From a virus (Duplodnaviria; Heunggongvirae; Uroviricota; Caudoviricetes), in IMG/VR virus record IMGVR_UViG_2877263951_000002: 16,767 bases of DNA; one strand, 5' to 3'. Under the pieces are notes generated by a model. It had not been told where the DNA came from. It searched no databases and saw only the letters and a list, made by a program, of their open reading frames with translations. The translations under genes were made by a program, and so were the position numbers. Within the stretch, counting starts at the first letter, position 1; the number at the start of each line of letters is the position of its first letter. Below are positions 1 through 16,767 of this stretch, in pieces.

Positions 1-561
1 TCAAAACTGAAAGCGCATCCAGGCAAAGTACACATTGCCATTGTTGTAGGTACCCGGAATGTAGGTCATCTGAAAAGTCACTGGGCCATAACCCACGGAG
101 GCCAATGGCAGTAGAACCGGGAGAGGGATGTAATTCCAGTTATCGCGTGCCGTTACGCCAGCGGTGAATCCCAGACCTAAATGAAAATTTTCATCCGCCA
201 GCGGTCGCCAGGTACTTTCCCATCCGTATCCGGCAATCGGTTCCCATTTGTTCCACGAGTCCTTAAATGCCATGGCATACAGGCCATGCCAGTTTCCTTT
301 TTCATCCCAACGCGACAGGCCAAAACCGCCACCCCACGGTCGCTCGTTATAGCGATCGGTTTTTTCTTTGTCGTAAGCGAAACGTGCATGCCAGGTGATG
401 GCAGGAATATATAAATCATAATGTTCAGGCTGTTGCCAGGTTTGTGCAATATTTTCTCTAAACGTTGTCATCCTCTCATCTGCGTTAGCAAAAACTTTAC
501 CAACGCTGATTAACTGAATAAAAACAAAGGAAAAGATAGCGACATATTTACTCACGTTCAT
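1..561 (-). CDS. pagP: lipid A palmitoyltransferase PagP (CrcA)
   Basis: Minus-strand ORF with stop TGA at 1-3 (window edge) and ATG at 559-561, 186 aa ([12 protein letters not shown]...YFAWMRFQF). Recognised as E. coli PagP. The 8 extra N-terminal residues in the ORF track come from an upstream TTG and are not used. Confidence 0.9.
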
Positions 562-1047
562 TTGTGACCATAAAACATTTATCAAAAATCTACTACTAGC
601 ATAGCAAAGCTACAATTAACATAACCTTAATAGACCCAACATAAAGAATAATCTGAATAGCTGCTCTATTTATTTCCGCTTGTTCAAGTTAAATATTTCC
701 GCGCATCGATTAAAGATGATGCGTCGTTTTCTGCGATGGGAATAGTCAAAAAAGAAAAACCAAGTCTTTTTTGATGACAAAATGCAATCAAGGAAAAATT
801 ATTTTATTTTTTTAACGAGATACAACAATCATCTTAACGAAGTATATAATATATATCGTCAACCCATGCTCATATTAGATTATTTTTTGAGCGCACAGCC
901 GCAGCTAACACCATTGCAATTAACAAATTTGCATCAATCCACCATCAATTTACACACATTATTATGTGATAATTGCCAACCGCTAAATATGCGTTTTGTT
1001 ATCTATGTATAAAAACAGCAACTTCAATGTCTTAATGGCAGTTTTTC

Positions 1048-1061
1048 TTGATTTTAATCAG
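1048..1061 (+). promoter_or_regulatory. putative FNR binding site upstream of dcuC
   Basis: TTGATtttaATCAg, 9/10 match to FNR consensus TTGAT-N4-ATCAA, centred about 95 nt upstream of the dcuC ATG. dcuC is known to be anaerobically induced via FNR. Site not experimentally verified here. Confidence 0.4.
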
Positions 1062-1149
1062 CATTCATCGCCAATTTATTGGGCATATTTTTTCCTTAAG
1101 CTTTAGGAAGTTTTTATTATTTACTTTGGGCCTGGAGACAGGAAAAATT

Positions 1150-2535
1150 ATGCTGACATTCATTGAACTCCTTATTGGGGTTGTGGTTATTGTGGGTGTG
1201 GCTCGCTACATCATTAAAGGGTATTCCGCCACTGGTGTGTTATTTGTCGGTGGCCTGTTATTGCTGATTATCAGTGCCATTATGGGGCACAAAGTGTTAC
1301 CGTCCAGCCAGGCTTCAACAGGCTACAGCGCCACGGATATCGTTGAATACGTTAAAATATTACTAATGAGCCGCGGCGGCGACCTCGGCATGATGATTAT
1401 GATGCTGTGTGGCTTTGCCGCTTACATGACCCATATCGGCGCGAATGATATGGTGGTCAAGCTGGCGTCAAAACCATTGCAGTATATTAACTCCCCTTAC
1501 CTGCTGATGATTGCCGCCTATTTTGTTGCTTGTCTGATGTCACTGGCCGTCTCTTCCGCAACCGGTCTGGGTGTTTTGCTGATGGCAACCCTGTTTCCGG
1601 TGATGGTAAACGTTGGTATCAGTCGTGGCGCAGCAGCTGCCATTTGTGCCTCCCCGGCGGCGATTATTCTCGCACCGACTTCAGGGGATGTGGTGCTGGC
1701 GGCGCAGGCTTCCGAAATGTCGCTGATTGACTTCGCCTTCAAAACGACGCTGCCTATCTCAATTGCTGCAATTATCGGCATGGCGATCGCCCACTTCTTC
1801 TGGCAACGTTATCTGGATAAAAAAGAGCACATCTCTCATGAAATGTTAGATGTCAGTGAAATCACCACCACTGCCCCCGCGTTTTATGCCATTTTGCCGT
1901 TCACGCCGATCATCGGTGTACTGATTTTTGACGGTAAATGGGGTCCGCAATTACACATCATCACTATTCTGGTGATTTGTATGCTGATTGCCTCCATTCT
2001 GGAGTTCCTCCGCAGCTTTAATACCCAGAAAGTTTTCTCTGGTCTGGAAGTGGCTTATCGCGGGATGGCAGATGCGTTTGCTAACGTGGTGATGCTGCTG
2101 GTTGCCGCTGGGGTATTCGCTCAGGGGCTTAGCACCATCGGCTTTATTCAAAGTCTGATTTCTATCGCTACCTCGTTTGGTTCGGCGAGTATCATCCTGA
2201 TGCTGGTATTGGTGATTCTGACCATGCTGGCGGCAGTCACGACCGGTTCAGGCAATGCGCCGTTTTATGCGTTTGTTGAGATGATCCCGAAACTGGCGCA
2301 CTCTTCCGGCATTAACCCGGCGTATTTGACTATCCCGATGCTGCAGGCGTCAAACCTGGGTCGTACCCTATCACCCGTTTCTGGCGTAGTCGTTGCGGTT
2401 GCCGGGATGGCGAAAATCTCACCATTTGAAGTCGTAAAACGCACCTCGGTGCCGGTGCTTGTTGGGCTAGTGATTGTTATCGTTGCTACAGAGCTGATGG
2501 TGCCAGGAACGGCAGCAGCGGTCACAGGCAAGTAA
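1150..2535 (+). CDS. dcuC: anaerobic C4-dicarboxylate transporter DcuC
   Basis: ATG at 1150 preceded by AGGA (1140-1143), stop TAA 2533-2535, 461 aa, very hydrophobic multi-pass membrane protein. Recognised as E. coli DcuC; divergent from pagP and convergent with dpiA as in E. coli K-12. The 34-residue upstream extension in the ORF track is not used. Confidence 0.92.
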   Translation: MLTFIELLIGVVVIVGVARYIIKGYSATGVLFVGGLLLLIISAIMGHKVLPSSQASTGYSATDIVEYVKILLMSRGGDLGMMIMMLCGFAAYMTHIGANDMVVKLASKPLQYINSPYLLMIAAYFVACLMSLAVSSATGLGVLLMATLFPVMVNVGISRGAAAAICASPAAIILAPTSGDVVLAAQASEMSLIDFAFKTTLPISIAAIIGMAIAHFFWQRYLDKKEHISHEMLDVSEITTTAPAFYAILPFTPIIGVLIFDGKWGPQLHIITILVICMLIASILEFLRSFNTQKVFSGLEVAYRGMADAFANVVMLLVAAGVFAQGLSTIGFIQSLISIATSFGSASIILMLVLVILTMLAAVTTGSGNAPFYAFVEMIPKLAHSSGINPAYLTIPMLQASNLGRTLSPVSGVVVAVAGMAKISPFEVVKRTSVPVLVGLVIVIVATELMVPGTAAAVTGK

Positions 2536-2543
2536 ATAGTAAT

Positions 2544-2570
2544 GCCGGAGGCAAGTTTCCTCCGGCTTTA
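2544..2570. terminator. putative bidirectional intrinsic terminator between convergent dcuC and dpiA
   Basis: Inverted repeat GCCGGAGG (2544-2551) / CCTCCGGC (2559-2566) with a 7-nt loop, followed by TTTA; sits between the dcuC stop (2533-2535) and the dpiA stop (2576-2578). Confidence 0.45.
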
Positions 2571-2575
2571 TCATG

Positions 2576-2917
2576 TCACCCACTGTGGTATATGCGTTGT
2601 GGTCTGCCAACTTTGCCGTGAACAATTTCAGCAATAATCAGATGGCGGCTGGCGCAATATTCAAGATAACGCCTGGCAGTGGTGCGGCTGATGGTCAGTG
2701 CCTGCGCCACCGTTTCTGCCGTATGTTGCACACCAGGCTCTTTAAACAGTTTTCGCACCGCGTTTAGCGTCAAGGGGTCAATGCCGGTCGGCAGTTCGTC
2801 TTTGGGTTCACCGCGAGCATAGGCATTAAACATCTCATCAATTTGCTTCTGGCTGGCGCTATCAATACTTTCCAGCATATGTTTACGCTGGCGGAAACGG
2901 GTTAGCGTTTGCCCCAG
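2576..2917 (-). pseudogene. dpiA: 3' half of response regulator gene dpiA (citB), interrupted by Mu-type insertion
   Basis: Minus-strand frame open from 2917 to stop TGA 2576-2578 (113 codons: LGQTLTRFRQRKHMLESIDSASQKQIDEMF...RRYLEYCASRHLIIAEIVHGKVGRPQRIYHSG), recalled as the C-terminal DNA-binding half of DpiA. The frame closes 3-4 codons into the Mu-type end (stop at 2927-2929). N-terminal receiver half is not in the window. Confidence 0.8.
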
Positions 2918-3088
2918 TGTATTGATTCACTTGAAGTACGAAAAAACCGGGAGAACATTGGATTATTCGGGATCTGATGGGATTAGATTTGGTGGGGCTT
3001 GCAAGCCTGTAGTACAAATTTTAGGCGTTAACCAATGAAACGCGAAAGATAGTAAAAAATTGCTTTTGTTTCATTGAAAAAACGAAAA
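2918..3088 (+). other. Mu-type attL with transposase end-binding sites (L1 2923-2944; L3-like 3067-3088)
   Basis: 2923-2944 TGATTCACTTGAAGTACGAAAA and 3067-3088 TGTTTCATTGAAAAAACGAAAA both fit the MuA end-site consensus TGNTTCAYTNNAARYRCGAAAA; 3036-3049 contains an ACGCGAAAG half-site-like motif. Confidence 0.7.
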
Positions 3089-3254
3089 ACAAAAACACTA
3101 TAAATCATTTCAATCATAGCTTCAAAAAACGTTCAAAACCGATAACAACCAGGCTGTCACCAAATGACTCATATCACAAATCAGCTCATGCCGTTTAGGT
3201 ATGTTACATGTGTGATTATGTGAGGTGAAGTATGTTTTAGCTGGCTCATGGTTG

Positions 3255-3764
3255 TTATACGGCTTTTTTCGCATCTTGTGGTTCCAACAAAGGAGCTACA
3301 GGCTCTTCCTGTTTATGAACACCATACATTGACAAAATCTCTTGGCGAGTTTCTGGAGGTAATTTATGCAGCGCCAAAGCTGTTTGTAGTGTTTGGCGAT
3401 CAATACCCAGCGTTGCCAATAGGGTGTCAACGGAGATGGAGGGGCGTTCTTGCATTAATCCGGAAAGCCCATATTTAGCCATGTTTAGCTCTATCTCTCG
3501 GACTTCATTTTCTCCTAGTTTATTGATTAACAGGGAGAACATTTTCAATGTATCAGCATTCATTTCTTCGATAGCAATTTTTTGCATAGCCGGTATTGCC
3601 GGGATATATTCAACCCCAGGCCCGCGACGCCCTTCTTGTGAACGCTTCGGCCATCCTTCTTTCTTTGCTCGTTTATGCACCCCCTGTATTGTCCCTGGCA
3701 TTCCATCCAGTTCAGTAATTTGTTTGGGTGTCATCCACTGGTTTATCTCATTTGCGCTTTTCAT
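3255..3764 (-). CDS. c: Mu/D108-type repressor (Repc-like)
   Basis: ATG 3762-3764, stop TAA 3255-3257, 169 aa. The C-terminal region (...RQEILSMYGVHKQEEPVAPLLEPQDAKKAV) closely resembles the Mu repressor C-terminus (...KEILSKYGIHEQES...KKAV) and the N-terminus has the MPG..GVH.RA...GW.KR winged-helix motif shared with MuA and Mu Repc. Divergent from Mu in detail, so D108-like by inference. Confidence 0.8.
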   Translation of the reverse strand: MKSANEINQWMTPKQITELDGMPGTIQGVHKRAKKEGWPKRSQEGRRGPGVEYIPAIPAMQKIAIEEMNADTLKMFSLLINKLGENEVREIELNMAKYGLSGLMQERPSISVDTLLATLGIDRQTLQTALALHKLPPETRQEILSMYGVHKQEEPVAPLLEPQDAKKAV

Positions 3765-3917
3765 AAACTAAGTTTACCAGATTTATCTATATAAAAATCA
3801 ATGGATTACAAAATAAACCACATTAACTGATATAAACCAGTTTTGTTTATTTGGTAATGTATAAAACAGATAATCAAGACGAATTATTTGTTTTGGTAAC
3901 CCTTTATCATACGCAAT
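3765..3917. promoter_or_regulatory. early operator/promoter region between divergent c and ner (expected Pe/Pc and repressor operators)
   Basis: 153-bp AT-rich spacer between divergently transcribed repressor and ner, the position of O1-O3, the IHF site and Pe/Pc in Mu. Individual operators were not delimited from sequence alone. Confidence 0.45.
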
Positions 3918-4172
3918 ATGGTTGGTGTGCGAAAGATGAGTAACGATTGGCATCGGGCCGACGTGATTGCGGCCCTCAAAAAAACAGGAACCCCTCTGGC
4001 AAAATTGTCCAGACGTTCAGGTTATTCAACCGGGACGCTTGCAAATGCATTAGTCAGGCCATGGCCTAAAGGTGAACGCATTATTGCTGACGCCTTAAAC
4101 ATGAAACCTGAGGAAATTTGGCCTAGTAGATATCTAAGGGATCACAATGAGAGAGTGGATATCAGCAATTGA
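3918..4172 (+). CDS. ner: Ner-like DNA-binding early regulator
   Basis: ATG 3918 (alternative ATG at 3936), stop TGA 4170-4172. [13 protein letters not shown]...TLANAL...WPKGE.IIA.AL...PE.IWPSRY matches the Mu Ner family along its length. The 3' end overlaps the A start by 26 nt. Confidence 0.75.
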
Positions 4173-5781
4173 ATGCATGGGTTTATCTGGTTTACCTGGT
4201 TCATTAATGGGGGTTCACAAAAGAGCTCAGAGAGAAGGATGGCTCAAGAGAAGAAGAGAAGGAATTAGAGGGGTTGCTTACGAATACCATATATCTTCTC
4301 TTCCTAACATTGCTCGAGCTGAAGTTTTGCTCCAACAAGGAAAATTTAAAACCAGTCAGGGATGTTTTGAAATCGCCCGCCCCACGCTGGAAGCTCATGA
4401 TTATGATCGTGAGGCACTATGGAGCAAATGGGATAAAGCCAGCGATTCCCAGCGCAGCCTGGCTGAAAAATGGTTGCCCTCAATTCAGGCCACAGACGAA
4501 ATGCTGAACCAGGGGATTTCAACGAAAACGGCTTTTGCGACCGTTGCAGGGCATTACCAGGTCAGCGCATCCACTTTGCGGGACAAGTATTACCAGGTAC
4601 AGAAGTTTGCGAAGCCTGACTGGGCGGCTGCACTTGTTGATGGACGTGGAGCATCCCGTCGCAATGTTCACAAAAGTGAATTTGACGAGGATGCCTGGCA
4701 GTTTCTGATTGCAGATTATCTGCGACCGGAAAAACCCGCCTTCCGCAAATGTTATGAGCGTCTGGAACTGGCAGTCCGCGAGCATGGCTGGAGTATTCCC
4801 TCCCGTGCCACGGCCTTTCGCCGGATTCAGCAACTGGACGAGGCAATGGTTGTTGCCTGTCGTGAAGGTGAACATGCACTGATGCATCTGATACCGGCAC
4901 AGCAGCGAACTGTGGAACACCTGGACGCCATGCAGTGGATCAACGGCGACGGTTATCTGCATAACGTCTTTGTACGCTGGTTTAACGGTGATGTGATCCG
5001 TCCGAAAACATGGTTCTGGCAGGATGTGAAAACCCGAAAAATTCTGGGCTGGCGCTGCGATGTGAGCGAGAACATTGATTCAATTCGCCTCTCGTTCATG
5101 GATGTTGTGACTCGCTACAGTATCCCGGAGGATTTTCACATCACCATTGATAACACCCGTGGTGCTGCGAATAAATGGCTGACGGGAGGCGCGCCCAATC
5201 GCTACCGCTTTAAGGTAAAAGAGGACGATCCAAAAGGACTGTTTTTACTGATGGGTGCGAAAATGCACTGGACAAGCGTTGTTGCCGGTAAAGGCTGGGG
5301 CCAGGCAAAACCTGTTGAACGTGCTTTCGGTGTTGGTGGGCTTGAGGAATACGTTGATAAGCATCCGGCACTGGCTGGCGCATATACGGGGCCAAATCCG
5401 CAGGCAAAACCTGATAACTATGGCGACCACGCTGTTGATGCAGAGCTGTTTCTGAAAACCTTTGCCGAAGGTGTGGCGATGTTCAATGCCAGAACAGGCC
5501 GTGAAACAGAAATGTGCGGGGGCAAACTCTCGTTTGATGATGTTTTCGAGCGTGAATACGCCAGAACGATTGTGCGTAAGCCAACCGAAGAACAAAAACG
5601 GATGCTGTTACTGCCTGCCGAGGCGGTGAACGTTTCACGCAAAGGCGAGTTTACGCTTAAAGTTGGCGGCTCCCTTAAAGGCGCGAAAAACGTTTATTAC
5701 AACATGGCATTAATGAATGCCGGAGTGAAAAAAGTTGTGGTCAGATTTGATCCACAGCAGTTACACAGCACGGTTTATTGA
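4147..5781 (+). pseudogene. A: Mu-type transposase A, 3'-truncated (544 of about 663 codons); stop codon supplied by IS600 terminus
   Basis: ATG 4147 with AAGGGA 6-7 nt upstream; protein near-identical to recalled MuA over residues about 60-544 (...[12 protein letters not shown]) and divergent in the first about 60 residues. After codon 544 the sequence becomes the IS600 end (TGA at 5779-5781). Confidence 0.9.
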
Positions 5782-5842
5782 GATAGCCTGAGTTTAACGG
5801 ACACTCCTTCCTGAAATAGAATGGCATCAGAAGGAGCTAATA

Positions 5843-6145
5843 ATGAGCAGAAAAACCCGACGTTACTCTAAAGAGTTCAAAGCCGAAGCTGTCAGAACGG
5901 TTCTTGAAAATCAACTTTCGATCAGTGAAGACGCTTCCCGATTATTCCTTCCTGAAGGCACTTTAGGACAATGGGTTACCGCCGCCAGAAAAGGGCTCGG
6001 TACTCCTGGTTCCCGCACGCTGGCTGAACTGGAATCTGAAATTCTGCAACTGCGTAAGGCGTTAAATGAAGCTCGCCTTGAGCGAGATATATTAAAAAAA
6101 GCAACAGCGTATTTTGCACAGGAGTCGCTGAAAAATACGCGTTAA
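5843..6145 (+). CDS. IS600 OrfA (transposase N-terminal HTH subunit)
   Basis: ATG 5843 with GGAG 8 nt upstream; 100 aa MSRKTRRYSKEFKAEAV...; contains the slippery run at 6094-6100. Confidence 0.85.
   Translation: MSRKTRRYSKEFKAEAVRTVLENQLSISEDASRLFLPEGTLGQWVTAARKGLGTPGSRTLAELESEILQLRKALNEARLERDILKKATAYFAQESLKNTR
6094..6100 (+). other. programmed -1 ribosomal frameshift heptamer A_AAA_AAA(G) of IS600 copy 1
   Basis: Zero-frame codons AAA AAA at 6095-6100 in orfA; the -1 frame is open from 6100 through the orfB ATG at 6181, as expected for OrfAB fusion transposase of IS3-family elements. Confidence 0.6.
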
Positions 6146-6180
6146 TCGAACAATGGCGACAACAATTTCCCATTGAAGCG

Positions 6181-6999: not shown

Positions 7000-7042
7000 A
7001 AAAAGAACAAATGGTAGTGTCCGCTATTGCCAGTACACCTCA

Positions 7043-7241
7043 ATTCTTTGGCATTTTTTACCTCGTTACGCGCGTCTGTGGCTTTGCCAACGGATACTTC
7101 CGCGTGCGCACGAGTGAACCAGTGCGTGGCAACGTCTTCCTCCACAACATGACGGCCTTTAACAAACTCGCGCCGAGAACCGTCGGGAAGCGTGAGCACA
7201 AACGGGGTATGTACGTGTATTACTGCATCATTTTTTGCCAT
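7043..7241 (-). pseudogene. small phage gene downstream of the major capsid gene, 3'-truncated by IS600 copy 1
   Basis: ATG 7239-7241 with AAGGA 8 nt upstream; 66 phage-encoded codons (MAKNDAVIHVHTPFVLTLPDGSRREFVKGRHVVEEDVATHWFTRAHAEVSVGKATDARNEVKNAKE), then the frame runs into IS600. Function unknown. Confidence 0.4.
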
Positions 7242-7282
7242 CGGGTCATCCTTAATGGCCCCGCCAGGGGGCCATGTGGCTG

Positions 7283-8224
7283 TTAAATGCCATCAACGTA
7301 CGAAATGGTTTCTTTGTACACTGGCTCGACTGCACCCAGCTTGCCGTAGTAAGTGACGATCTGATACAGACCGCGATACTGCACCGGCACGCTCTGAAGC
7401 GGAACCAGCGGGTAGCGGACGTATTTTTTATCGTTGGTGTACGCAACCATGCGATCCTTATTCCCCACACCACGGCCTTTCAGCCATTTAACCGCGCGGA
7501 TATTCAGCGGAACACCGTTCTGGTGATAGCTGATGGTGTTGGTCTGAAGGTTCGTCAACAGGGACTGGTTACCTGCAGATGAAACGATGATGCTGGACAA
7601 CAGAGCAAACTGCTCAGGCGGGATCAGCAAATCACGCGGAACCACAGAGTAACCAGAAGCGGCCCACGCATCAGACAGCACCTGGTTAATGCTTGCGCGG
7701 ATTTCGTCCGGTGTTGAGGTTGCCCACGTTTTGGCAGCGTTGTTGACAGGCACGCCGTCCAGGGTAACAAGGCCTTTCAGGTTTAATGCGGAATCGCCAA
7801 CATATACCTGTTCATCGTTATCCATCTGCCATTTCAGTTGCATACCGTCATACTTCTGCGTATCAATCGGGCGGCCGACCTGCTGAGCAGCCTGCAATTC
7901 TATGACCGTCCAGCCAAGTTCCATCCCCCACAGGTTCAGCGGGTTACCGGATTTGCCGATATCCACGTTCACGCCAGCAATAGCGGTTGAGTCTTTGCCT
8001 ACCCAGTTTTTTCCATTCGGATTTGCGCCAGTACCCGCAGCGGCGAAGCTGGTATTCGTCCAGCTGGAAATGTCATCTGCGATGGAGGCGTCTTCACGCA
8101 GTTGAATATCGCGGCTCCAGGTGTACCCCACCAGTGGCAGGTTCAGCGTCTGGTCGAGTCTCTCCAGCTCCCCGATGAGAAAGGCACCAGAGCTGTCAAC
8201 GGTTGCCTGATCAAAAGTAATCAT
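7283..8224 (-). CDS. phage major capsid protein (DUF2184-like family by recall)
   Basis: ATG 8222-8224 with AAGGAA 7-8 nt upstream, stop TAA 7283-7285, 313 aa; position after scaffold-like and small genes in a head module; sequence recalled as a prophage major capsid family. Family assignment unverified. Confidence 0.65.
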   Translation of the reverse strand: MITFDQATVDSSGAFLIGELERLDQTLNLPLVGYTWSRDIQLREDASIADDISSWTNTSFAAAGTGANPNGKNWVGKDSTAIAGVNVDIGKSGNPLNLWGMELGWTVIELQAAQQVGRPIDTQKYDGMQLKWQMDNDEQVYVGDSALNLKGLVTLDGVPVNNAAKTWATSTPDEIRASINQVLSDAWAASGYSVVPRDLLIPPEQFALLSSIIVSSAGNQSLLTNLQTNTISYHQNGVPLNIRAVKWLKGRGVGNKDRMVAYTNDKKYVRYPLVPLQSVPVQYRGLYQIVTYYGKLGAVEPVYKETISYVDGI

Positions 8225-8368
8225 TCGTCTGTTCCTTAAATCTTCCAGGAAATTTCTGCATTGCCGTCAGCATCACCGGCACCTGTGAATTCAGCGTTGG
8301 TCAGCACCACGTTTTTGCCACTGACTGACGTGGACATGAATCCACCCAGAGGCACTTTGATGGATTCA

Positions 8369-8725
8369 TCAGTGGAGATCGCCTTTTTTGATAGTGCTGG
8401 CATCAAAATCAGAACCGAGATTAACGGTCACGTAGCCACGCTTCATGGCGTCGCCCGGGAAGTTCTTGCCTGTTCCCACCTGGCGAACCATGTCCGGCTG
8501 CGACGTGGTCGGATAAGGGCGCACGTAGATCCCCTTCACCTTGTCTGCGGTATCACCATCTGCCAGCGGCACGAAAAAACCGTCATCATCGTATTTACCA
8601 GCCAGGCCATAGGCAGCGAAGGCGTTATCGGATTTAAGGACCACCGGTTCGACGGTTAAGTCCTGCGGGCGAGAGACAGCCCCGGCAATGCCAACAGGCA
8701 TCCGGTACAGAAATACATTATTCAT
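8369..8725 (-). CDS. small phage head-module protein (possible decoration/structural protein)
   Basis: ATG 8723-8725 with AAGGG upstream, stop TGA 8369-8371, 118 aa; lies between scaffold-like gene and capsid gene. Function inferred only from position. Confidence 0.4.
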   Translation of the reverse strand: MNNVFLYRMPVGIAGAVSRPQDLTVEPVVLKSDNAFAAYGLAGKYDDDGFFVPLADGDTADKVKGIYVRPYPTTSQPDMVRQVGTGKNFPGDAMKRGYVTVNLGSDFDASTIKKGDLH

Positions 8726-8728
8726 TTT

Positions 8729-9172
8729 TTACCCTTTACGGTTTGCCCAGAATTCAGCGTTTTGTTTGTTCAGGGAAGCGATACTGGTCATGCCCATGTT
8801 TAGGCGCTGTGCATCGCCGGTGGTGGCGCGGGTGTTTCGCCCTTTGGCAACCTCAGACACGGCATTAAACGCCATGTCGACCGATTGTTTCGGTAATTTG
8901 CGGATATCCGCATCACCGACTATCTGGCGAACCAGCGTTTTGTCAGCAGAAGCCAGAACCTCGCGTTTGAACGCGGTCGGTTTCATCTTACGGCTCAGAT
9001 CGATACCCGGAACGATAACTTCGGCACGCCAGGCTGAGTCACCAGTAATCGTGGTTTCCTCTTCATCGTCCTCGCCGTCACCGGTCGGATTATCGTCAGG
9101 CTTATTATCGTTATCGCCCGTGGCATTTCTTTCCAGCTTAGCCAGCAGGGCTTTCAGTAATGTTTTGAGGTC
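8729..9172 (-). pseudogene. 3' part of phage scaffold/maturation-like gene interrupted by IS600 copy 2
   Basis: Minus-strand frame is open from the IS600 boundary (9172) to stop TAA 8729-8731 with no upstream start of its own (...DLKTLLKALLAKLERNATGDNDNKPDDNPTGDGEDDEEETTITGDSAWRAEVIVPGIDLSRKMKPTAFKREV...). It continues in phase with the 10437-11216 part across the 3-bp duplication. Confidence 0.6.
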
Positions 9173-9236
9173 TGAGGTAGCCTGAGTTTAACGGACACTC
9201 CTTCCTGAAATAGAATGGCATCAGAAGGAGCTAATA

Positions 9237-9539
9237 ATGAGCAGAAAAACCCAACGTTACTCTAAAGAGTTCAAAGCCGAAGCTGTCAGAACGGTTCTTG
9301 AAAATCAACTTTCGATCAGTGAAGGCGCTTCCCGATTATCTCTTCCTGAAGGCACTTTAGGACAATGGGTTACCGCCGCCAGAAAAGGGCTCGGTACTCC
9401 TGGTTCCCGCACGCTGGCTGAACTGGAATCTGAAATTCTGCAACTGCGTAAGGCGTTAAATGAAGCTCGCCTTGAGCGAGATATATTAAAAAAAGCAACA
9501 GCGTATTTTGCACAGGAGTCGCTGAAAAATACGCGTTAA
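9237..9539 (+). CDS. IS600 OrfA
   Basis: 100 aa; differs from copy 1 OrfA at 3 residues (Q6, G30, S35 versus R, D, F). Confidence 0.85.
   Translation: MSRKTQRYSKEFKAEAVRTVLENQLSISEGASRLSLPEGTLGQWVTAARKGLGTPGSRTLAELESEILQLRKALNEARLERDILKKATAYFAQESLKNTR
9488..9494 (+). other. programmed -1 frameshift heptamer A_AAA_AAA(G) of IS600 copy 2
   Basis: Same position as in copy 1 (offset 3394). Confidence 0.6.
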
Positions 9540-9574
9540 TCGAACAATGGCGACAACAATTTCCTATTGAAGCG

Positions 9575-10393
9575 ATGTGTCAGGTATTTGGTGTATCCAG
9601 GAGCGGTTATTACAACTGGGTACAGCATGAACCCTCAGACAGAAAACAAAGTGATGAGCGGCTAAAACTGGAGATTAAGGTGGCACATATCCGCACTCGC
9701 GAAACATATGGAACCCGGCGGCTCCAGACGGAGCTGGCAGAGAATGGCATCATCGTTGGTCGTGACCGACTGGCACGTCTTCGTAAGGAGCTGAGGCTAC
9801 GCTGTAAGCAGAAACGCAAGTTCAGAGCGACTACGAACCCGAACCACAATCTGCCAGTTGCGCCAAATCTGCTGAACCAGACGTTCGCTCCTACAGCACC
9901 AAATCAGGTCTGGGTGGCGGACCTGACGTATGTTGCCACACAGGAGGGATGGTTGTACCTCGCTGGCATCAAAGATGTTTATACGTGCGAAATTGTCGGC
10001 TACGCCATGGGAGAGCGCATGACAAAAGAGCTGACAGGTAAAGCCCTGTTTATGGCGCTCAGGAGCCAGCGCCCACCTGCCGGGCTAATCCACCACTCTG
10101 ATCGAGGTTCACAGTACTGCGCATACGATTACCGGGTCATACAGGAGCAGTTTGGTCTGAAAACATCAATGTCGCGTAAAGGTAACTGTTACGACAACGC
10201 TCCGATGGAAAGCTTCTGGGGAACGCTGAAAAATGAGAGCCTGAGCCACTATCGTTTTAATAACCGGGATGAAGCCATCTCAGTAATACGGGAATACATT
10301 GAGATTTTCTACAATCGTCAGCGTCGTCACTCTCGTCTGGGGAATATCTCCCCGGCAGCCTTCAGGGAAAAATATCATCAGATGGCTGCTTAA
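9575..10393 (+). CDS. IS600 OrfB
   Basis: 272 aa; differs from copy 1 OrfB at 2 residues (R versus C; F versus S). Confidence 0.85.
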   Translation: MCQVFGVSRSGYYNWVQHEPSDRKQSDERLKLEIKVAHIRTRETYGTRRLQTELAENGIIVGRDRLARLRKELRLRCKQKRKFRATTNPNHNLPVAPNLLNQTFAPTAPNQVWVADLTYVATQEGWLYLAGIKDVYTCEIVGYAMGERMTKELTGKALFMALRSQRPPAGLIHHSDRGSQYCAYDYRVIQEQFGLKTSMSRKGNCYDNAPMESFWGTLKNESLSHYRFNNRDEAISVIREYIEIFYNRQRRHSRLGNISPAAFREKYHQMAA

Positions 10394-10436
10394 AAAAAGA
10401 ACAAATGGTAGTGTCCGCTATTGCCAGTACACCTCA

Positions 10437-11216
10437 GTCATCATCACTGTCGCCGGTTGGATCTCCGCCCATCTCTGGTGCTTTGTCCGGTAGTGGTTGC
10501 TGCGGGGACAGGTTGATGTTGAGATTAACGCCCTGCGGCAAATCCCCCTCATCTCCTGTAACCGATGCGGGAGCCGACTCCACCAGTTCGTTCATGGTGT
10601 CGGCATCTCCTGTCTTGATGGCCGCACGCATGCGGTTCCACCAGTTTTTCTTTTGATTTGCCATTGTGTCTCTGTCTCCAATTGCACAACGATTTCCGGC
10701 TCTGCCTTTAGGGACAAGAGCCACATGGTTTCCGGTAATATCGACCTGCTCGGCTTTACCTGGCTCGGTCTGCTCGTACTCCGCGTCATAGCCGCACGAC
10801 ACTTCGCGCAGGCCATCTTCGATAAGCTGAATGGCGCTTTCGTCTTTGACGATAAGGTCAGCCAGCATCAAATCAGACTGCTCACCCGTCCCGCGCCGGA
10901 CATTCTGGAGGTGCCCGACAGCAAGCACTTTCCAGTTCTCGGGATTTACCAGCCGCACATTCCCGTTTTCATCTTCAGGATGCAGGATCGTGATGCTCAT
11001 CCCTTCGAATGAGGCAAGCGTGGCCGGATGGAATACCTGCTCAGGAGAACGCGTGACGACTATTTCAACGAACTTATCGGGTTTCAGTTTTGGCAGGTCA
11101 TCAGCACCATAGAGCTGCTTACCTGTTCGTCCTATCGGCACGTCTTTGCACAGCAACGAGCCGTCAGCCAGGCGGTATCGGGTTTCCCCGAGCCTGGTCT
11201 CAAAAAAGTATTTCAT
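10437..11216 (-). pseudogene. 5' part of phage scaffold/maturation-like gene (DUF2213-like by recall) interrupted by IS600 copy 2
   Basis: ATG 11214-11216; 260 codons ending ...PTGDSDDD, where the last D codon (GAC) is the target duplication and the stop TGA (10434-10436) is the IS600 terminus. Confidence 0.6.
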
Positions 11217-11219
11217 GGG

Positions 11220-12002
11220 TTATGCTGCCCTTTTCATTGCGAATGGAACGCGAACAAACACGATCTCTTTATAGCAGCGGCAGTTTGGCAGCTCGCCCGC
11301 GTGGCCGGTCATGCCGTCCAAAGTTGGAGGTGAATCCCAGCGGACGAATTTACCTTTCATGTGATCGTGGGAATCTCGGACATCGCCATCATCGGCTGTA
11401 CGCCAAATATAACCATCCGAGCCAATAGCTATCGCTCGGGCCATATCCAGCGCGCCCGTTGCTCTTCCCAGTTCCGTTCGGGCAATCAGATCGGCCCTAG
11501 ACTTAGCAACATCGCCGGTAGATGCAATCTCTTTAGCAAACTGCTCCGCCCGACCACCGGTGACAACAGCCTCTATCGCTTTGTTCTGGATGTCGTACAC
11601 CCTGTCTGCGGCCTCGAGAGGCAGAGATTTGATGTACTTGACCTGTTCGGCGATGATGGATTGCATCACCTGGCCCACAGGAGCGCTTTCCACAAGATTG
11701 CGGAGCTCGCGACTGATGTTCTTGCTGTGTTGCCGCCAAACTTTCTCGTTCTGCCGGGTTAGGTCCGCAGTAAAGTTTTCCGCGACCTTTGTCGCCCAGG
11801 GGGTGATGATTTCACTGTAACGCTCCAGCGCCGCAATAATTTCCGTGATACTGTCATTTGAACCATCGTAGCGACCATTTACGATGTCTCCGACCGCCCT
11901 CGCTATCCTGCGTAGGCTGGTTCGATACCGGATTTCCGCCTGACGGCTCCTGCGGTTCGTCATCAGGTTCGCCGATGCCGGGCGGCGCTTCATCTTCGGC
12001 AT
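11220..12002 (-). CDS. phage head morphogenesis protein (Mu F / SPP1 gp7-like minor head protein)
   Basis: ATG 12000-12002 (alternative ATGs at 11993 and 11963), stop TAA 11220-11222, 260 aa; C-terminal region with ...HAGELPNCRCY... typical of the Mu F-like family; lies directly after the portal gene. Start uncertain; overlaps portal 3' end by up to 149 nt. Confidence 0.65.
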   Translation of the reverse strand: MPKMKRRPASANLMTNRRSRQAEIRYRTSLRRIARAVGDIVNGRYDGSNDSITEIIAALERYSEIITPWATKVAENFTADLTRQNEKVWRQHSKNISRELRNLVESAPVGQVMQSIIAEQVKYIKSLPLEAADRVYDIQNKAIEAVVTGGRAEQFAKEIASTGDVAKSRADLIARTELGRATGALDMARAIAIGSDGYIWRTADDGDVRDSHDHMKGKFVRWDSPPTLDGMTGHAGELPNCRCYKEIVFVRVPFAMKRAA

Positions 12003-13320
12003 TCTCGATGTCCTCGTTGGTAATGGATGCCCCTATGCCGGTTACGTCAGAATTTTCTCGCAAATCAGTCATAGCGGCTTTCAGTGTCATCAGACCATCA
12101 CCCAGCGCCGTACTGATTGCGTTGGTGGTGTTTAACGCCACCGTTGAGCGATCGACATCAGACATTTGCCAGAGCGGGTTAAACTCAAACGTGAAATCGT
12201 CCGGCAGCGGCTTGCCAAGTTCCGAACGATGCATGATGTCCAGTATCCGCCGCACCGGAAGACGTAAACGCCTCTCCTGCAACGAACTGATGCGATCGTA
12301 ATAGTTGGCAAGGTCTGCATCACCGGTAGAAAATCCTTTCGGGGACTGTCCGAACAACCGCACCAGTGGGATACCAACAGCGCCACTAATCTGTTCTGCA
12401 AACTGCGAAAGGATGTCATCCAGACCACTGAAGCTGTACTGATGGGTTTCAAACTTATCCCGCGAGTCCATGAGCGTCATGCCTTCATTACTCTGGAACT
12501 GTCGAATCAGGTCGATATTCTTCAGCAACGCTTCATACGCAGGACCACCAAGTGCGATAAGCTCGCGTAGCTTCTCCACGCTGTAGGTACGCAAATGCGC
12601 CTTGTAGACCAGCTGCGCCGCGCCGACAGTAGCGCTGTCGAACGCGGTAAGACGATCCCAGATACGCTCTACAACCGACATTCCCCATTCGTTCTCGGTC
12701 ATCTTCTGCTGAAATGGCAACGTGACGCCATCAAAGCGAATCAGGCGACTGTGATGAATGCGCCAGGCAGGAATTCCCGTTGCTGTGGTCACCACATCGT
12801 AAAACTCAGGTTTACCCAGGTCCGGCCCCATATCTTTAATGCGGCGGGTCAGTGCCGGGTCGACCATCCAGCGGTCGAGCGGGAGAATCCCCTTAAACTT
12901 GCCCTTACCGATGGTTTCGGGTCGCAGCGGGGTCATTGGTGCCTGCCCCTCAATCATGATGAAACCCACCGCGCCGCCGTAGAGGCGCGACCATTTCAGC
13001 ACGTCATTCAGCGCATCCCAGATTTGCAACTCATCCAGTTGTGATTCGAGAATGCCACGATCTTTTGCATCAATTTCCGAAGTGATGCGAATGCCTTTGC
13101 GGGTCATATCATCCGGGATAGCATCGACTGCTTCGCCGATGATCCAGGATGAACGATAGGACCATTCCACCAGCATGCGGTTACGACTGGTGAAATTAGC
13201 CCGGTAGGTGGATGCTGAGTGCTGGTTAGGTGTCTGCATCCCTACTCGGGCAATAAAATTCTCATAACCATCAGCTGTGGCCTGCACAGTTCGCCGCAGG
13301 GCTTGTTTGTTTCGTGCCAT
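11854..13320 (-). CDS. phage portal protein (DUF1073-like by recall)
   Basis: ATG 13318-13320 overlapping the TerL stop (ATGA), stop TGA 11854-11856, 488 aa with acidic C-terminal tail; position between TerL and head morphogenesis gene. Confidence 0.7.
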   Translation of the reverse strand: MARNKQALRRTVQATADGYENFIARVGMQTPNQHSASTYRANFTSRNRMLVEWSYRSSWIIGEAVDAIPDDMTRKGIRITSEIDAKDRGILESQLDELQIWDALNDVLKWSRLYGGAVGFIMIEGQAPMTPLRPETIGKGKFKGILPLDRWMVDPALTRRIKDMGPDLGKPEFYDVVTTATGIPAWRIHHSRLIRFDGVTLPFQQKMTENEWGMSVVERIWDRLTAFDSATVGAAQLVYKAHLRTYSVEKLRELIALGGPAYEALLKNIDLIRQFQSNEGMTLMDSRDKFETHQYSFSGLDDILSQFAEQISGAVGIPLVRLFGQSPKGFSTGDADLANYYDRISSLQERRLRLPVRRILDIMHRSELGKPLPDDFTFEFNPLWQMSDVDRSTVALNTTNAISTALGDGLMTLKAAMTDLRENSDVTGIGASITNEDIENAEDEAPPGIGEPDDEPQEPSGGNPVSNQPTQDSEGGRRHRKWSLRWFK

Positions 13321-14053
13321 CAGGCCTGTCTCCCCAGCTGTTCCCAGATATCCAGCGATGTATCGATTGGCGCGAAGGCCATAATGAATGCATCAGCAAC
13401 GTTTGGTGACGGTATCTCGCGTTTTGCGAGGTCTTTTTTACTTTCGACCATCACACGTCCGTTACGGTCGAAATCACGATGAGGTGTTGTCAGTTCCAGT
13501 TTCAGCTTTTCAAGCAACGGACAACGAGAATCTATGCTGATCAGCTCATCCACAGGATACTGTTCTCCGTTGTTAATGGCGTTAAACGTATTTCTGAAAC
13601 GGTCAGCCACCATGCCTGAGCCTTAAGATTTGCGAAAAAGTCTTTGTTGGGGATGCCGTTGTACTCGTCATCTGGCTCATGCACACCAGCACCGGCGTTA
13701 AACCTCTGGTAATTCACACGTCGCGCGTATGCGTTCTCGCTCTTCCGGTCAGCGTTAATTTCAGAGAATTTAGCACCGGCAGACGCACCAACACCGATAG
13801 AGTCGTAAACAATATCTGCTTCACGCTCCAGCGCCGCCTGATAAGTACGCTGGCAGCTCTTCAGTAATTCATCTTCTTTGGCCTTCCATTCGTCGGCCCA
13901 GAAAACAACGGATCCGTGACGGTAAACGTTAGCGCACTTATCTGTACCACTGTCAGCCACGTCAAAGCCAATACGCTTTCTTCCACTGGGTTCGAAATTT
14001 AACGTTTTGTGCGCATCCACTGCGGCTTCTATCCAAGACAGTTTGATGATTGC
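13320..14053 (-). pseudogene. terminase large subunit, 3' (nuclease-domain) part; separated from its 5' part by IS2 and carrying a 1-bp frameshift near 13604-13612
   Basis: Two overlapping minus-strand frames: 14053-13544 (...NLKAQAWW LTVSEIR... stop 13541-13543) and 13622-13323 (...VADRFRNTFNAINNGEQYP...RVMVESKKDLAKREIPSPNVADAFIMAF..., stop TGA 13320-13322). Together they resemble a single TerL C-terminus. Confidence 0.7.
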
Positions 14054-14064
14054 TGGATTTGCCC

Positions 14065-14970
14065 CTATATTTCCAGACATCTGTTATCACTTAACCCATT
14101 ACAAGCCCGCTGCCGCAGATATTCCCGTGGCGAGCGATAACCCAGCGCACTATGCGGATGCCATTCGTTATAATGCTCGAACGCCTCTGCAAGGTTCTTT
14201 GCTGCCGTTAACCCGTCTGGTTTGGGCATGATACTGATGTAGTCACGCTTTATCGTTTTCACGAAGCTCTATGCTATTCCGTTACTCTCCGGACTCCGCA
14301 CCGCCGTGTTCTTCGGTTCAAGTCCCAACATCCGGGCGAACTGGCGTGTTTCATTAGCCCGGTAGCATGAACCATTATCCGTCAGCCACTCCACTGGAGA
14401 CGACGGAAGATCGTTGCCGAAGCGGCGTTCCACCGCTCCCAGCATGACGTCCTGTACTGTTTCACTGTTGAAGCCGCCGGTAGTCACCGCCCAGTGCAGT
14501 GCCTCACGATCACAGCAGTCCAGCGCGAACGTGACACGCAGTCTCTCTCCGTTATCACAGCAGAACTCGAACCCGTCAGAGCACCATCGCTGATTGCTTT
14601 CTTTCACGGCCACTCTGCCTGTATGTGCCCGTTTCGATGGCGGTACAGCAGGTTTTCGCTCAAGCAACAGCGCATTCTGGCGCATGAGCCGGTAAACACG
14701 TTTGGCATTGATCGCAGGCATACCATCAAGTTCTGCCTGTCTGCGAAGCAGCGCCCATACCCGACGATAACCATACGTGGGCAGCTCTCCGATAACATGG
14801 TGTATACGGAGAAGCACATCCGTATCATCAGTGTGACGACTGCGGCGGCCATCCATCCAGTCATCGGTTCGTCTGAGAATGACGTGCAACTGCGCACGCG
14901 ACACCCGGAGACAACGGCTGACTAAGCTTACTCCCCATCCCCGGGCAATAAGGGCGCGTGCGCTATCCAC
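14065..14970 (-). pseudogene. insD: IS2 insD (OrfB, DDE transposase domain) with in-frame TAG at 14269-14271
   Basis: GTG at 14968-14970 (the -1 frame entry point), frame open to TAG at 14269-14271 (233 codons), then the same frame continues for 67 more InsD-like codons to TAG at 14065-14067 (...[19 protein letters not shown]...NRCLEI). Recalled canonical InsD has Glu at this codon. Confidence 0.8.
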
Positions 14971-15293
14971 TTTTTTGCCCGTCCATATTCAACGGCTTCT
15001 TTGAGGAGTTCATTTTCCATCGTTTTCTTGCCGAGCAGGCGCTGGAGTTCTTTAATCTGCTTCATGGCGGCAGCAAGTTCAGAGGCAGGAACAACCTGTT
15101 CTCCGGCGGCCACAGCAGTAAGACTTCCTTCCTGGTATTGCTTACGCCAGAGAAATAACTGGCTGGCTGCTACACCATGTTGCCGGGCAACGAGGGAGAC
15201 CGTCATCCCCGGTTCAAAGCTCTGCTGAACAATTGCGATCTTTTCCTGTGTGGTACGCCGTCTGCGTTTCTCCGGCCCTAAGACATCAATCAT
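14928..15293 (-). CDS. insC: IS2 InsC (OrfA, HTH subunit)
   Basis: ATG 15291-15293, stop TAA 14928-14930, 121 aa [26 protein letters not shown]...; the 15 extra N-terminal residues in the ORF track are not used. Slippery heptamer A_AAA_AAG on minus strand at 14970-14976. Confidence 0.88.
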
Positions 15294-15384
15294 CTGTTCT
15301 CCAATGACTAGTCTAAAAACTAGTATTAAGACTATCACTTAAATAAGTGATACTGGTTGTCTGGAGATTCAGGGGGCCAGTCTA

Positions 15385-16079
15385 ATTGCCGCATCATCAT
15401 CAGACTCCGGAACGCCCTCATACACATGTTTAAAACCATCCGGATCACGGCGTCGCGCCGCGTCGATAACCTTAAGCATGGTGTCAGACAGAAACGGATT
15501 TTCGTCATAGTTAATTTTGCGGATGAGAGTGCCTTCGGGCGGATCAACAACGAAGTTGCGCCAGACGAAATCAGTAACAAGTCCGGGGTTGAATATGAAC
15601 CAGCATTCCGAACCCTCTTTACGGATCGTTGGCTCCAGAATTTTCCACTGGTATTCCGTCAGTGCGTGGGCTTCTTCCAGCCACAACATATCGATCCCCT
15701 CCAGTGACTTAATTTCTTCGATGTTGCGCCATAATCCATAAAAAACAAATTCCGAGCCAGTAACCCGGTTAATGATTTTGTTGTTCAGAATACGGAAACG
15801 GTGCCGCAGACCAAACCTGTCTATCTGAATTTTGAGCAGGGTATACACCGACTCTTCGATTTTATTCTGGATCTGACGGGCACAACAAAAACGCAGGGTG
15901 TATTTATTCGACAGAAATATGGCAATGCCAGCGGCATCCCATGATTTTGACGATGACCGACCACCATAAAGCACTTTGTTACGTGCCCGCATAGTCCAGA
16001 AACTACGTAAAGCCGGATTCAGCGTCGGTTTGGATGTCAGAGTAGAAGTCATTGAGGTCACGCTCTCCATTGCCATCAT
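15385..16079 (-). pseudogene. terminase large subunit, 5' (ATPase-domain) part, interrupted by IS2
   Basis: Frame open from candidate ATGs at 16091/16079/16076/16070/16052 (16079 chosen: AGGT 5 nt upstream) down to the IS2 boundary; contains a Walker A-like motif (VLYGGRSSSKS). The frame continues in phase into 14053 after removing IS2 and one copy of ATTGC. Start is uncertain; the TTG at 16160 in the ORF track is not used. Confidence 0.65.
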
Positions 16080-16767
16080 CAATACCTGCATCACGGCGAA
16101 GACGATCAGCCTCCAGAGACACCTTATCAGTGGCGGCCTTGCGGTAGGCTGTATCAGCAAATATTTTTCCTACCGTCGCAAGCGTGCCAACGATGGACTC
16201 AATACGAACTGTATTGCGCATCATTGCTTTCTCGGCGGCGCTGATATTTTCAATCAGCATCTTCCTTTCCTGGTCCCCATTAGCATCTTCCAGCGACACC
16301 AACCACCGACCAATATTCTCTGCAGCGACAAGGTTGTTAGCACGAAGGCGAAATAATTCGTCCTCGAGCGTCAACGCTTTAGCGTCCTCTATCACCTCAT
16401 CTTTGAGCAGAAGGCGACGGGCATAACCACCGTGTTTTAATGCCTGCTGGTTACCGGGTTGGAATGGGTTAGTCGGGGGATCGGTACGCATTCCGCGTAT
16501 CGGTTTCGTATCCGGTGTAGATTCTGTTTTTAGTTGCGTACTTTTTTGTGTAAGGCCAGTAATGGCAGGCTTTCTGCTGGTACGCACTTTCCTTTTTTGC
16601 GTACCATTTTTGCAAACCTGCGTACCGCCACTGCGTGCCCAATCAAGCTTTTTGGCCCTCTTCCTGATAGCCCCTTCTGTAACGCCGTATTTCTCGCCTA
16701 TATCACGGAGGCTAAGGACTCCGGCCCGGTATGCCGATTCGATGGCCTCCCAGTCCGGTTTTGCCAT
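16003..16767 (-). CDS. putative terminase small subunit (HTH DNA-binding N-terminus)
   Basis: ATG is the last three bases of the window (16765-16767), so the true start could lie further upstream; stop TAG 16003-16005; 254 aa; immediately upstream of and overlapping TerL; N-terminus (MAKPDWEAIESAYRAGVLSLRDIGEKYGVTEGAIRKRAKK) looks like an HTH. Assignment by position and weak recall. Confidence 0.5.
   Translation of the reverse strand: MAKPDWEAIESAYRAGVLSLRDIGEKYGVTEGAIRKRAKKLDWARSGGTQVCKNGTQKRKVRTSRKPAITGLTQKSTQLKTESTPDTKPIRGMRTDPPTNPFQPGNQQALKHGGYARRLLLKDEVIEDAKALTLEDELFRLRANNLVAAENIGRWLVSLEDANGDQERKMLIENISAAEKAMMRNTVRIESIVGTLATVGKIFADTAYRKAATDKVSLEADRLRRDAGIDDGNGERDLNDFYSDIQTDAESGFT

Follow-up and report, generated by a model that had tools for sequence, protein, structure and literature searches.

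A truncated Mu-family left end joined at an IS600 element to decayed head genes of a second, probably SEN34/Brunovirus-like, prophage

Remnants of the Mu family occur in many serotypes of Shigella flexneri, as reported from PCR and Southern blotting by Jakhetia and Verma (2015; PMC4406740), and the truncated Mu left end described below is a remnant of the same kind as the cryptic SfMu/Mu remnants of that species (PMC4406740). It differs from what is known in two respects, as the junction analysed here is not described in that report and the immunity region of the present element differs from that of Mu. In phage Mu the head module runs gp27, gp28, gp29/H, gp30/F, I/Z and T, a functional order which is also that of the head genes of the present locus, although these are oppositely oriented to the transposase gene A. 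An identical order (TerS, TerL, DUF1073 portal, head morphogenesis protein, DUF2213 protein, structural/cement protein, major head protein and small genes) is found in the Brunovirus SEN34, which shares 82.6% DNA identity with our locus over the head genes and possesses its own lambdoid early and lysis region. The E. coli temperate myoviruses vB_EcoM-689R2, 611R5, 683R1 and 606R2 are closer still, with 95% DNA identity over the head genes, while the nearest solved structures for the capsid and portal are those of the Pseudomonas myoviruses Pam3, E217 and Pa193, which infect another host genus and are distant in sequence (E-values of 1e-14 to 1e-37).

The whole stretch of DNA that was analysed, hereafter the window, comprises the 16,767 nucleotides of IMG/VR record IMGVR_UViG_2877263951_000002 and is 100% identical to CP026765.1; its features are collected in Table 1. 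Chromosomal DNA gives way to prophage within dpiA, which is intact in IAI1 and is split here by the Mu insertion at 2917/2918. The left element matches phage Mu at 96.5% DNA identity across 66% of its length, the immunity region being divergent, and blastn matches to Mu in the window are confined to positions 2918-3363 and 4327-5780. Its A gene and that of SfMu share 97.7% identity, the SfMu match beginning only inside A, while the prophage of UMNF18 represents the sole full-length match to the c-ner-A region. Judged by these sequence comparisons, the left element is a true member of the Mu family. The stop codon of the truncated A gene (TGA) is supplied by the first three bases of the adjoining IS600 copy.

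Table 1. Features of the 16,767-nucleotide window (TSD, target-site duplication; relative, the intact prophage of E. coli FDAARGOS_944, designated L001)
Feature	Position	Strand	Observations
Core chromosome	1..2917		pagP (minus), dcuC (plus), dpiA 3' half (minus, 2576-2917); 99.3% identity to E. coli pagP-dcuC-dpiA
Mu-family prophage left end	2918..5778	+	begins with terminal TGTATTGATTCAC
Mu c repressor	3255-3764	-	
Mu ner	3918-4172		in left end 2918..5778
Mu A	4147-5781 with stop (4147-5778 Mu-coded)	+	cut off after codon 544
IS600 copy 1 (bridge)	5779-7042	+	1264 bp; 9 positions differ from copy 2
STY1053-family small gene	6996-7241	-	kept to ~codon 66/73; frame continues into IS600; matches gene of relative
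Major capsid protein (DUF2184/PF09950)	7283-8224	-	intact, 313 aa; Pfam E 2.5e-86; phrog_264
Cement/minor capsid protein	8369-8725	-	PF23982/PF22758; 118 aa vs 168 aa when intact
DUF2213 protein, 3' part	8729-9172	-	codons ~261-406; colinear with L001 prophage
IS600 copy 2 in DUF2213	9173-10436	+	3-bp TSD GTC; flank overlap L001 22145-22147
DUF2213 protease/scaffold, 5' part	10434-11216	-	codons 1-260; PF09979, E 1.3e-41
MuF/SPP1 gp7-domain head-morphogenesis protein	11220-12002	-	intact; PF04233, E 1.5e-18; phrog_324
Portal (DUF1073/PF06381)	11854-13320	-	intact, 488 aa; Pfam E ~3e-106; phrog_146
TerL 3' half	13320..14053	-	codons ~222-467
IS2 in TerL	14054-15384	-	5-bp TSD ATTGC; overlap at L001 25764-25768
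TerL 5' part	15385..16160 (ORF 15369-16160)	-	codons 1 to ~223; Terminase_3 ATPase domain PF04466, E 1.2e-38
TerS	16003-16767	-	intact, 254 aa; phrog_370, E 5.5e-95; 99.6% aa identity to intact relative

Beyond this IS600 copy, positions 7043-16767 hold eight head and packaging genes, all on the minus strand and convergent with Mu A, in the order TerS, TerL, portal, MuF-domain protein, DUF2213 protein, cement protein, major capsid protein and STY1053-family gene. This order, first proposed in a preliminary description of the DNA, was borne out by Pfam, PHROG and relative matches, as was the statement that the module is transcribed towards A and lies a single IS away from codon 544, the bridging IS600 being the only separator. 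The start codon of TerS coincides with the end of the window. At the protein level the module agrees closely with the intact relative: the 5' part of TerL is 99.6% identical to residues 1-223 of its counterpart, and the ORFs at 13541-14080 and 13320-13613 correspond to residues 222-379 and 371-467, respectively, of the same protein. The MuF-domain protein is 100% identical over 247 aa and the major capsid protein 99.4% identical, while 116 residues of the cement protein find a match. The 5' part of the DUF2213 protein, which falls into PHROG head maturation protease families, displays 99.2% aa identity, and an 85-aa ORF in its 3' part covers residues 322-406 of a protein that is 406 aa long when intact.

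The source of the module is revealed most clearly by comparison with the intact prophage of E. coli FDAARGOS_944, with which it is colinear apart from the IS elements at 98.7-99.7% DNA identity. The colinear stretch, shared with the prophage of FDAARGOS_944 and FDAARGOS_943, takes in the whole 7.1 kb from the STY1053-family gene to TerS, similarity beginning at window position 7043 (L001 20001) within the former gene. In FDAARGOS_944 the prophage resides between ybhA and pgl, its own attachment locus, and its gene run comprises int/xis, cI/cro, replication genes, tRNAs, holin/RrrD/Rz, DedA and the genes from TerS to the major capsid protein, followed by a tail part with sheath, tube, baseplate, tail fibres and ipaHb. 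Whereas this ipaH-carrying prophage is complete or nearly so in FDAARGOS_944 and FDAARGOS_943, the copy in the window is cut at codon 66 of the STY1053-family gene and fused to Mu A; in FDAARGOS_943 TerL likewise contains an IS2 of its own, whose insertion site lies 220 bp away from that of the window. Where sister genomes share the Mu junction, TerS is still followed by DedA and by an Rz1 fragment of this prophage, and nothing else of its tail, integrase, immunity and lysis genes is kept there. A further relative (L020) possesses a different TerS/TerL pair.

The head families of the module and their order are those of SEN34 genes 1-7 and of the L001 prophage. With the vB_EcoM phages, 95% identity is maintained only to near the portal/TerL boundary (query position 6374, window position ~13373), so that TerS and the greater part of TerL are without similarity at that level. 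In contrast to SEN34 and the vB_EcoM phages, the window holds a fragment devoid of tail, lysis, immunity and integrase functions, interrupted by IS2 and IS600 and bearing two frameshifting deletions, and it is therefore to be regarded as the remnant of a SEN34/Brunovirus-like member rather than as a complete one. Among solved structures, the capsid protein matched the Pam3 major capsid protein (8hdt; E 3.6e-18) and the portal the Pam3 portal (8hds; E 2.5e-37), 8fvh and 9b41 being further portal homologues. The source prophage is a temperate myovirus with head proteins of the E217/Pam3 type. In Pfam, the cement, sheath and adaptor families take their names from the phages Pam3, E217 and Pa193.

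Decay of the module, on which the preliminary description was silent, is extensive, as TerL, the DUF2213 gene and the cement gene are disrupted, while TerS, the portal, the MuF protein and the major capsid protein are still intact. The reading frame of TerL is shifted by a 7-bp deletion at 13603/13604, and the cement protein is truncated through a 17-bp deletion at 8376/8377. The IS2 copy in TerL (~1331 bp) shows 99.8% identity to the annotated IS2 of the SfX record and belongs, like IS600, to the IS3 family, and the second IS600, an orfA/orfB-type element of ~1264 bp with 99.8% identity to annotated IS600, is a simple insertion into the DUF2213 gene that was restricted to L003, L005 and L006 among the loci compared. 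Genes for the tail (DUF3383 sheath, DUF3277 tube), an integrase, and lambdoid immunity or lysis functions were absent across the window. The module is dead and can neither package DNA nor form a capsid. That its intact genes, unchanged across many Shigella genomes, may be under selection as host-beneficial or anti-phage functions, for example by blocking related phages, appears very unlikely, and the shared identity of these genes would follow just as well from the genomes having a recent common ancestor.

The IS600 copy at the join is without a target-site duplication, being flanked by TAT and ATT, whereas the second IS600 and IS2 each retain theirs, a pattern that fits an IS600-mediated rearrangement. 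The junction between A and IS600 was found in 16 other loci among those compared, in independent assemblies which include several complete chromosomes, and the junction between IS600 and the STY1053-family gene in 12 other loci, the 40-base junction string having no exact counterpart in L011. Each of four features, namely the A/IS600 junction, the IS2 insertion and the two small deletions, recurs in at least 13 other loci, some of them from Shigella flexneri assemblies, which points to one ancestral event. The same junctions also occur in CP012735.1 and CP026768.1. Two of the relatives show IS600 recombination directly: in L004 the whole stretch between the two IS600 copies has been lost, and in L007 the truncated A gene with its IS600 is fused to another region of this type of prophage.

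The preliminary description had left two readings side by side, namely a different prophage brought next to A through IS600, and a rearranged late region belonging to the Mu-like element itself, and had stated that sequence alone could not decide between them. The comparisons of family, identity and relatives do decide, and in favour of a separate prophage. In support of an inverted late region, belonging to a Mu relative with non-canonical head genes, one may cite the physical adjacency of the module to A, the resemblance of its order to Mu gp27-gp28-gp29-F-I-T and the PF04233 domain found in both. This gene order is common among tailed phages. The Mu-like synteny remarked upon earlier is accordingly real as an order but not specific to Mu and, being generic and present in SEN34 also, provides no evidence for kinship with Mu. 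PF04233 is the sole family shared between the Pfam sets of the module (PF04466, PF06381, PF09979, PF23982 and PF09950) and of Mu (PF11985, PF06074, PF10123 and PF10124), and even these proteins fall into different PHROGs (324 vs 220) with a pairwise E-value of 0.91 against Mu gp30; SEN34, too, has a MuF-domain gene. With the exception of the generic TerL family phrog_2, the PHROGs of the two modules differ. The module TerS (phrog_370) yielded no match to PF11985, the family of Mu gp27 (phrog_426); its portal belongs to PF06381/phrog_146 as opposed to PF06074 (DUF935)/phrog_113 for Mu gp29; and its protease/scaffold and capsid proteins belong to PF09979 and PF09950 as opposed to PF10123 for gpI and PF10124 for gpT, with BLASTP E-values above 1 against Mu I and T. 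Searches of the module proteins against the Mu late proteins returned a best BLASTP E-value of 0.24 and no phmmer match, and blastn at word size 11 detected no Mu DNA past position 5780, upholding the earlier impression that the module is not obviously Mu-derived. Moreover, in Mu itself and in the UMNF18 prophage, A is followed downstream by Mu-type head genes in the same orientation, while a DNA identity of 99.4-99.7% links the module to the head genes of a lambdoid prophage that encodes an integrase, has its lysis cassette and DedA upstream of TerS and occupies its own attachment locus between ybhA and pgl. A common origin of A and the head genes in one Mu-like element is refuted by these data and can be assigned only a negligible probability, while their near-identity to the lambdoid ybhA-pgl prophage lends strong support to a different prophage having come to lie beside A through IS600.

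With regard to the join itself, IS600 is a multi-copy repeat of 1.26 kb and as such a classic cause of misassembly, yet the recurrence of the A/IS600 and IS600/STY1053 junctions in independent assemblies, complete chromosomes included, makes an artefactual misjoin exceedingly improbable. A biological alternative, in which the second prophage was joined to A through a single IS600 and an adjacent deletion or illegitimate event, deserves somewhat more weight although we consider it unlikely. The absent duplication at the bridging copy would suit it equally well, since a deletion next to an IS should likewise leave none, so that two-copy recombination is unproven, and the reciprocal junction was not found. 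Such a route would, however, require that the prophages were neighbours beforehand, and products of IS600 x IS600 recombination are directly seen at this locus in L004 and L007. Adjacent deletions are, in addition, less typical of IS3-family elements, which transpose via excised circles. A protein search for the N-terminal half of dpiA fused to a Mu right end revealed neither the reciprocal junction nor the remainder of Mu: the short matches to DpiA residues 1-115 were dpiA frameshift variants and one fusion to unrelated sequence, none of them a Mu junction. When the tail sheath of the intact prophage served as the query, its cluster representative led only to another E. coli prophage.

Taken together, it is highly probable that positions 7043-16767 represent an inactive fragment of a second, unrelated, lambda-regulated myovirus prophage of the SEN34/Brunovirus type and not a Mu late region, with IS600 at the join and recombination between two IS600 copies as the likeliest route. 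The identities of the elements, the anatomy of the junction and its sharing among loci can be read directly, and from them we infer the IS600 x IS600 origin of the join. On this view, codon 544 of Mu A would have received one IS600 and the other prophage a further copy, close to the 3' end of its STY1053-family gene, whereupon homologous recombination between the two copies may have fused the remnants, probably as one of several IS-mediated steps, to leave a single hybrid IS600 without a target-site duplication. Subsequent decay would comprise the IS2 insertion in TerL, the 7-bp and 17-bp deletions and, in this lineage only, the second IS600 in the DUF2213 gene, an order of joining and decay which we infer. 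A derivation from the ybhA-pgl layout by one simple inversion or deletion was considered and rejected, as the orientations do not fit: if genes are ordered as in K-12 and the module is placed where it lies in the ybhA-pgl prophage, it is 'upstream' of the dpiA side and points the same way. Because of this mismatch, more than one IS event, or another ancestral location of the prophage in Shigella, has presumably to be assumed.

For annotation, the Mu remnant should be taken to stop at position 5778 and the head genes to constitute a separate defective SEN34/Brunovirus-like fragment, which should be labelled neither as Mu late genes nor as part of a single 'Mu-like prophage'. A prophage fragment joined to another at an IS600 is ordinary Shigella genome decay, and the locus represents a further example of the scrambling and erosion of Shigella prophages by IS600 and IS2 that raises no new biological question. 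The junctions that it shares with other genomes could nonetheless serve as lineage markers.

The preliminary description gave a minus-strand gene order for 7043-16767 that was borne out by Pfam and PHROG matches, the strongest reaching E 3e-106 (Pfam, portal) and 2e-174 (PHROG), and this head/packaging module does indeed converge with the Mu-family transposase gene A across a single IS600. The module is itself disrupted at several places, a point absent from that description.

Features of the Mu-family left end, the IS600 bridge and the head/packaging module
Feature	Position	Strand	Remark
pagP, dcuC, dpiA 3' half	1-2917		core chromosome
Mu-family prophage, exact left end	2918		starts TGTATTGATTCACTTGAAGTACG; then c, ner, A
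IS600 copy 1	5779-7042		last codons of STY1053 gene lost
STY1053-family gene (small)	6996-7241	minus	
Major capsid protein	7283-8224	minus	
Cement/minor capsid protein	8369-8725	minus	
17-bp deletion	8376/8377		cement protein truncated at codon 116
DUF2213 protein, two pieces		minus	between MuF-domain and cement proteins
IS600 copy 2	9173-10436		divides DUF2213 after about codon 260
MuF-domain head-morphogenesis protein	11220-12002	minus	
Portal	11854-13320	minus	
TerL, three pieces		minus	between TerS and portal
7-bp deletion	13603/13604		TerL frameshift near codon 371
IS2	14054-15384		divides TerL after about codon 221
TerS	16003-16767	minus	

Two origins had been proposed for the module, namely a separate prophage juxtaposed through IS600 or the rearranged late region of the same Mu-like element. 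The latter is refuted by the protein families involved, by the lack of pairwise similarity and by the layout of Mu-like prophages. Mu and the module have just two families in common, the widespread MuF domain and the generic TerL family phrog_2. BLASTP of module proteins against Mu late proteins (all pairs) gave a best E of 0.24 and phmmer gave no match. In the Mu-like prophage of E. coli UMNF18 the DUF3486 TerS, DUF935 portal, phage protease and gpT capsid genes follow A and read in its direction, as do the head genes of Mu itself. The Mu-like gene order is real but does not signify kinship to Mu, the synteny being that of head genes in general.

Families of corresponding proteins in Mu and in the module
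Protein	Mu	Module
TerS	PF11985, phrog_426	no PF11985; phrog_370
TerL	no Pfam match; phrog_2	PF04466, phrog_3717 and phrog_2
Portal	PF06074, phrog_113	PF06381, phrog_146
MuF protein	PF04233, phrog_220	PF04233, phrog_324
Protease/scaffold	PF10123, phrog_328	PF09979, phrog_1961/12864/530
Major capsid	PF10124, phrog_371	PF09950, phrog_264

The separate-prophage alternative proved right, as the module is near-identical (98.7-99.7% at the DNA level) to, and colinear once IS elements are taken out with, an intact prophage located between ybhA and pgl in E. coli FDAARGOS_944 (locus L001). In order, this prophage carries integrase/excisionase, Rac-like early genes, cI/cro, replication genes, four tRNAs, holin/RrrD/Rz and DedA, followed by TerS, TerL, portal, MuF, DUF2213, cement, MCP, STY1053 and DUF4054, and then by neck, DUF3383 sheath, DUF3277 tube, baseplate, tail fibres and ipaHb. 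Two groups stand nearest among sequenced phages: vB_EcoM-689R2 with its relatives, at 95%, and the Salmonella phage SEN34 of the genus Brunovirus, at 82.6%. SEN34 shows an identical head-gene order along with a lambdoid early and lysis region of its own. The nearest solved structures are the capsid and portal of Pam3 and the portals of E217 and Pa193.

Several further features of this prophage type were observed. The DedA-family membrane protein gene, encoded on the opposite strand, separates the lysis cassette from TerS (L001 27341-27853; L015 9294-9806), still adjoins the module fragment in Shigella genomes, and looks like a moron, that is, a phage-carried accessory gene. The T3SS effector gene ipaHb occupies the tail-fibre end beside pgl (L001 2578-4404), and the strains carrying it, although labelled E. 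coli, may be enteroinvasive. The related prophage of E. coli FDAARGOS_943, otherwise intact, has its own IS2 in TerL (L002 20982-22314), 220 bp from the IS2 site in the window, and the two are independent insertions in the same gene. Another locus (L020 865-3107, versus L001 25028-27146) bears a different pair, a Terminase_2 TerS of 205 aa and a TerL of 540 aa; since the portal-to-tail genes of prophages with this pair are near-identical, packaging genes are swapped as a separate cassette within the phage group.

The first 15,781 bases of the window (the extent of the fetched locus) are 100% identical to GCA_002949255.1 CP026765.1. On the other side of the bridge, the Mu-family insertion splits dpiA (citB) at about codon 113 (boundary 2917/2918). 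Outside the divergent immunity region, its left stretch shares 96.5% identity with phage Mu, blastn matches to Mu being confined to 2918-3363 and 4327-5780; the c/ner region (3364-4326) has no match to Mu, D108 or SfMu. A match to c-ner-A at full length (91.9%) comes from a single record, the UMNF18 prophage. IS600, beginning at 5779, cuts A off after codon 544, and its first three bases, TGA, supply the stop codon. Cryptic Mu/SfMu remnants are reported from many S. flexneri serotypes (PMC4406740). In an unrelated sample lacking Mu (L023 10001-10680), dpiA is split by an apparent 1-nt frameshift, judged from the protein sequence (ending ...KPIAYNGWGKR), about 10 nt away from where Mu is inserted in the window, a closeness that is probably coincidental.

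Concerning how the remnants met, IS600 copy 2 and IS2 each show the duplication expected of a simple insertion, 3 bp (GTC) and 5 bp (ATTGC) respectively, whereas the flanks of IS600 copy 1 differ (TAT and ATT), which is the signature of rearrangement through an IS. The join most likely arose when an IS600 in Mu A recombined homologously with another in the STY1053 gene; an IS-adjacent deletion, the rival explanation, would likewise leave no duplication. Sister genomes sharing the A-IS600 junction show products of IS600 recombination at this same locus. In L004 (GCA_900457135.1, 11633-12896, versus window 5779-10436) the capsid and cement segment between both IS600 copies has been lost by recombination between these direct copies, so that A'-IS600 directly abuts the DUF2213 5' half. 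In L007 (GCA_900484815.1, 11633-14555) the neighbour of A'-IS600 is not a head gene but the tail-fibre end, with DUF4376, of a prophage of this type (L001 5062 to 4229, in the direction of ipaH); this IS600 is itself interrupted by approximately 680 bp of extra sequence. Further IS-mediated scrambling is seen in L010 (5999-7710), where a 1.7-kb piece of the same prophage, holding the tRNA cluster and DUF1133 gene (L001 29032-30743), lies in inverted orientation past the IS bounding the fragment, and the two prophage pieces lack about 840 bp of intervening lysis genes.

Set against the K-12 gene order, the module as placed in the ybhA-pgl prophage has the same orientation as the dpiA side, and a single inversion or deletion from that layout therefore cannot be the source of the junction. 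Gene order and the known K-12 map suggest either several IS-mediated steps or a prophage placed elsewhere in the Shigella ancestor. Protein searches with tail-sheath and DpiA N-terminal queries found no reciprocal junction, remaining Mu or dpiA 5' half. On the far side of TerS, DedA and an Rz1 fragment from this prophage survive in sister genomes as far as L001 28187, followed by another IS3-family element and then unrelated lambdoid remnants or chromosomal genes; no Mu right end lies on that side in those examined.

Independent assemblies provide at least 13 other loci for each of four features: the A-IS600 junction, the IS2 insertion, the 7-bp deletion and the 17-bp deletion. The IS600-STY1053 junction is matched in 12, and IS600 copy 2 is present in three loci only. 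The fusion is therefore no assembly artefact but an old event that has become fixed in a lineage. The module is what is left, in inactive form, of a prophage type that is well represented, and the Mu A-IS600-module arrangement represents nothing mechanistically new.
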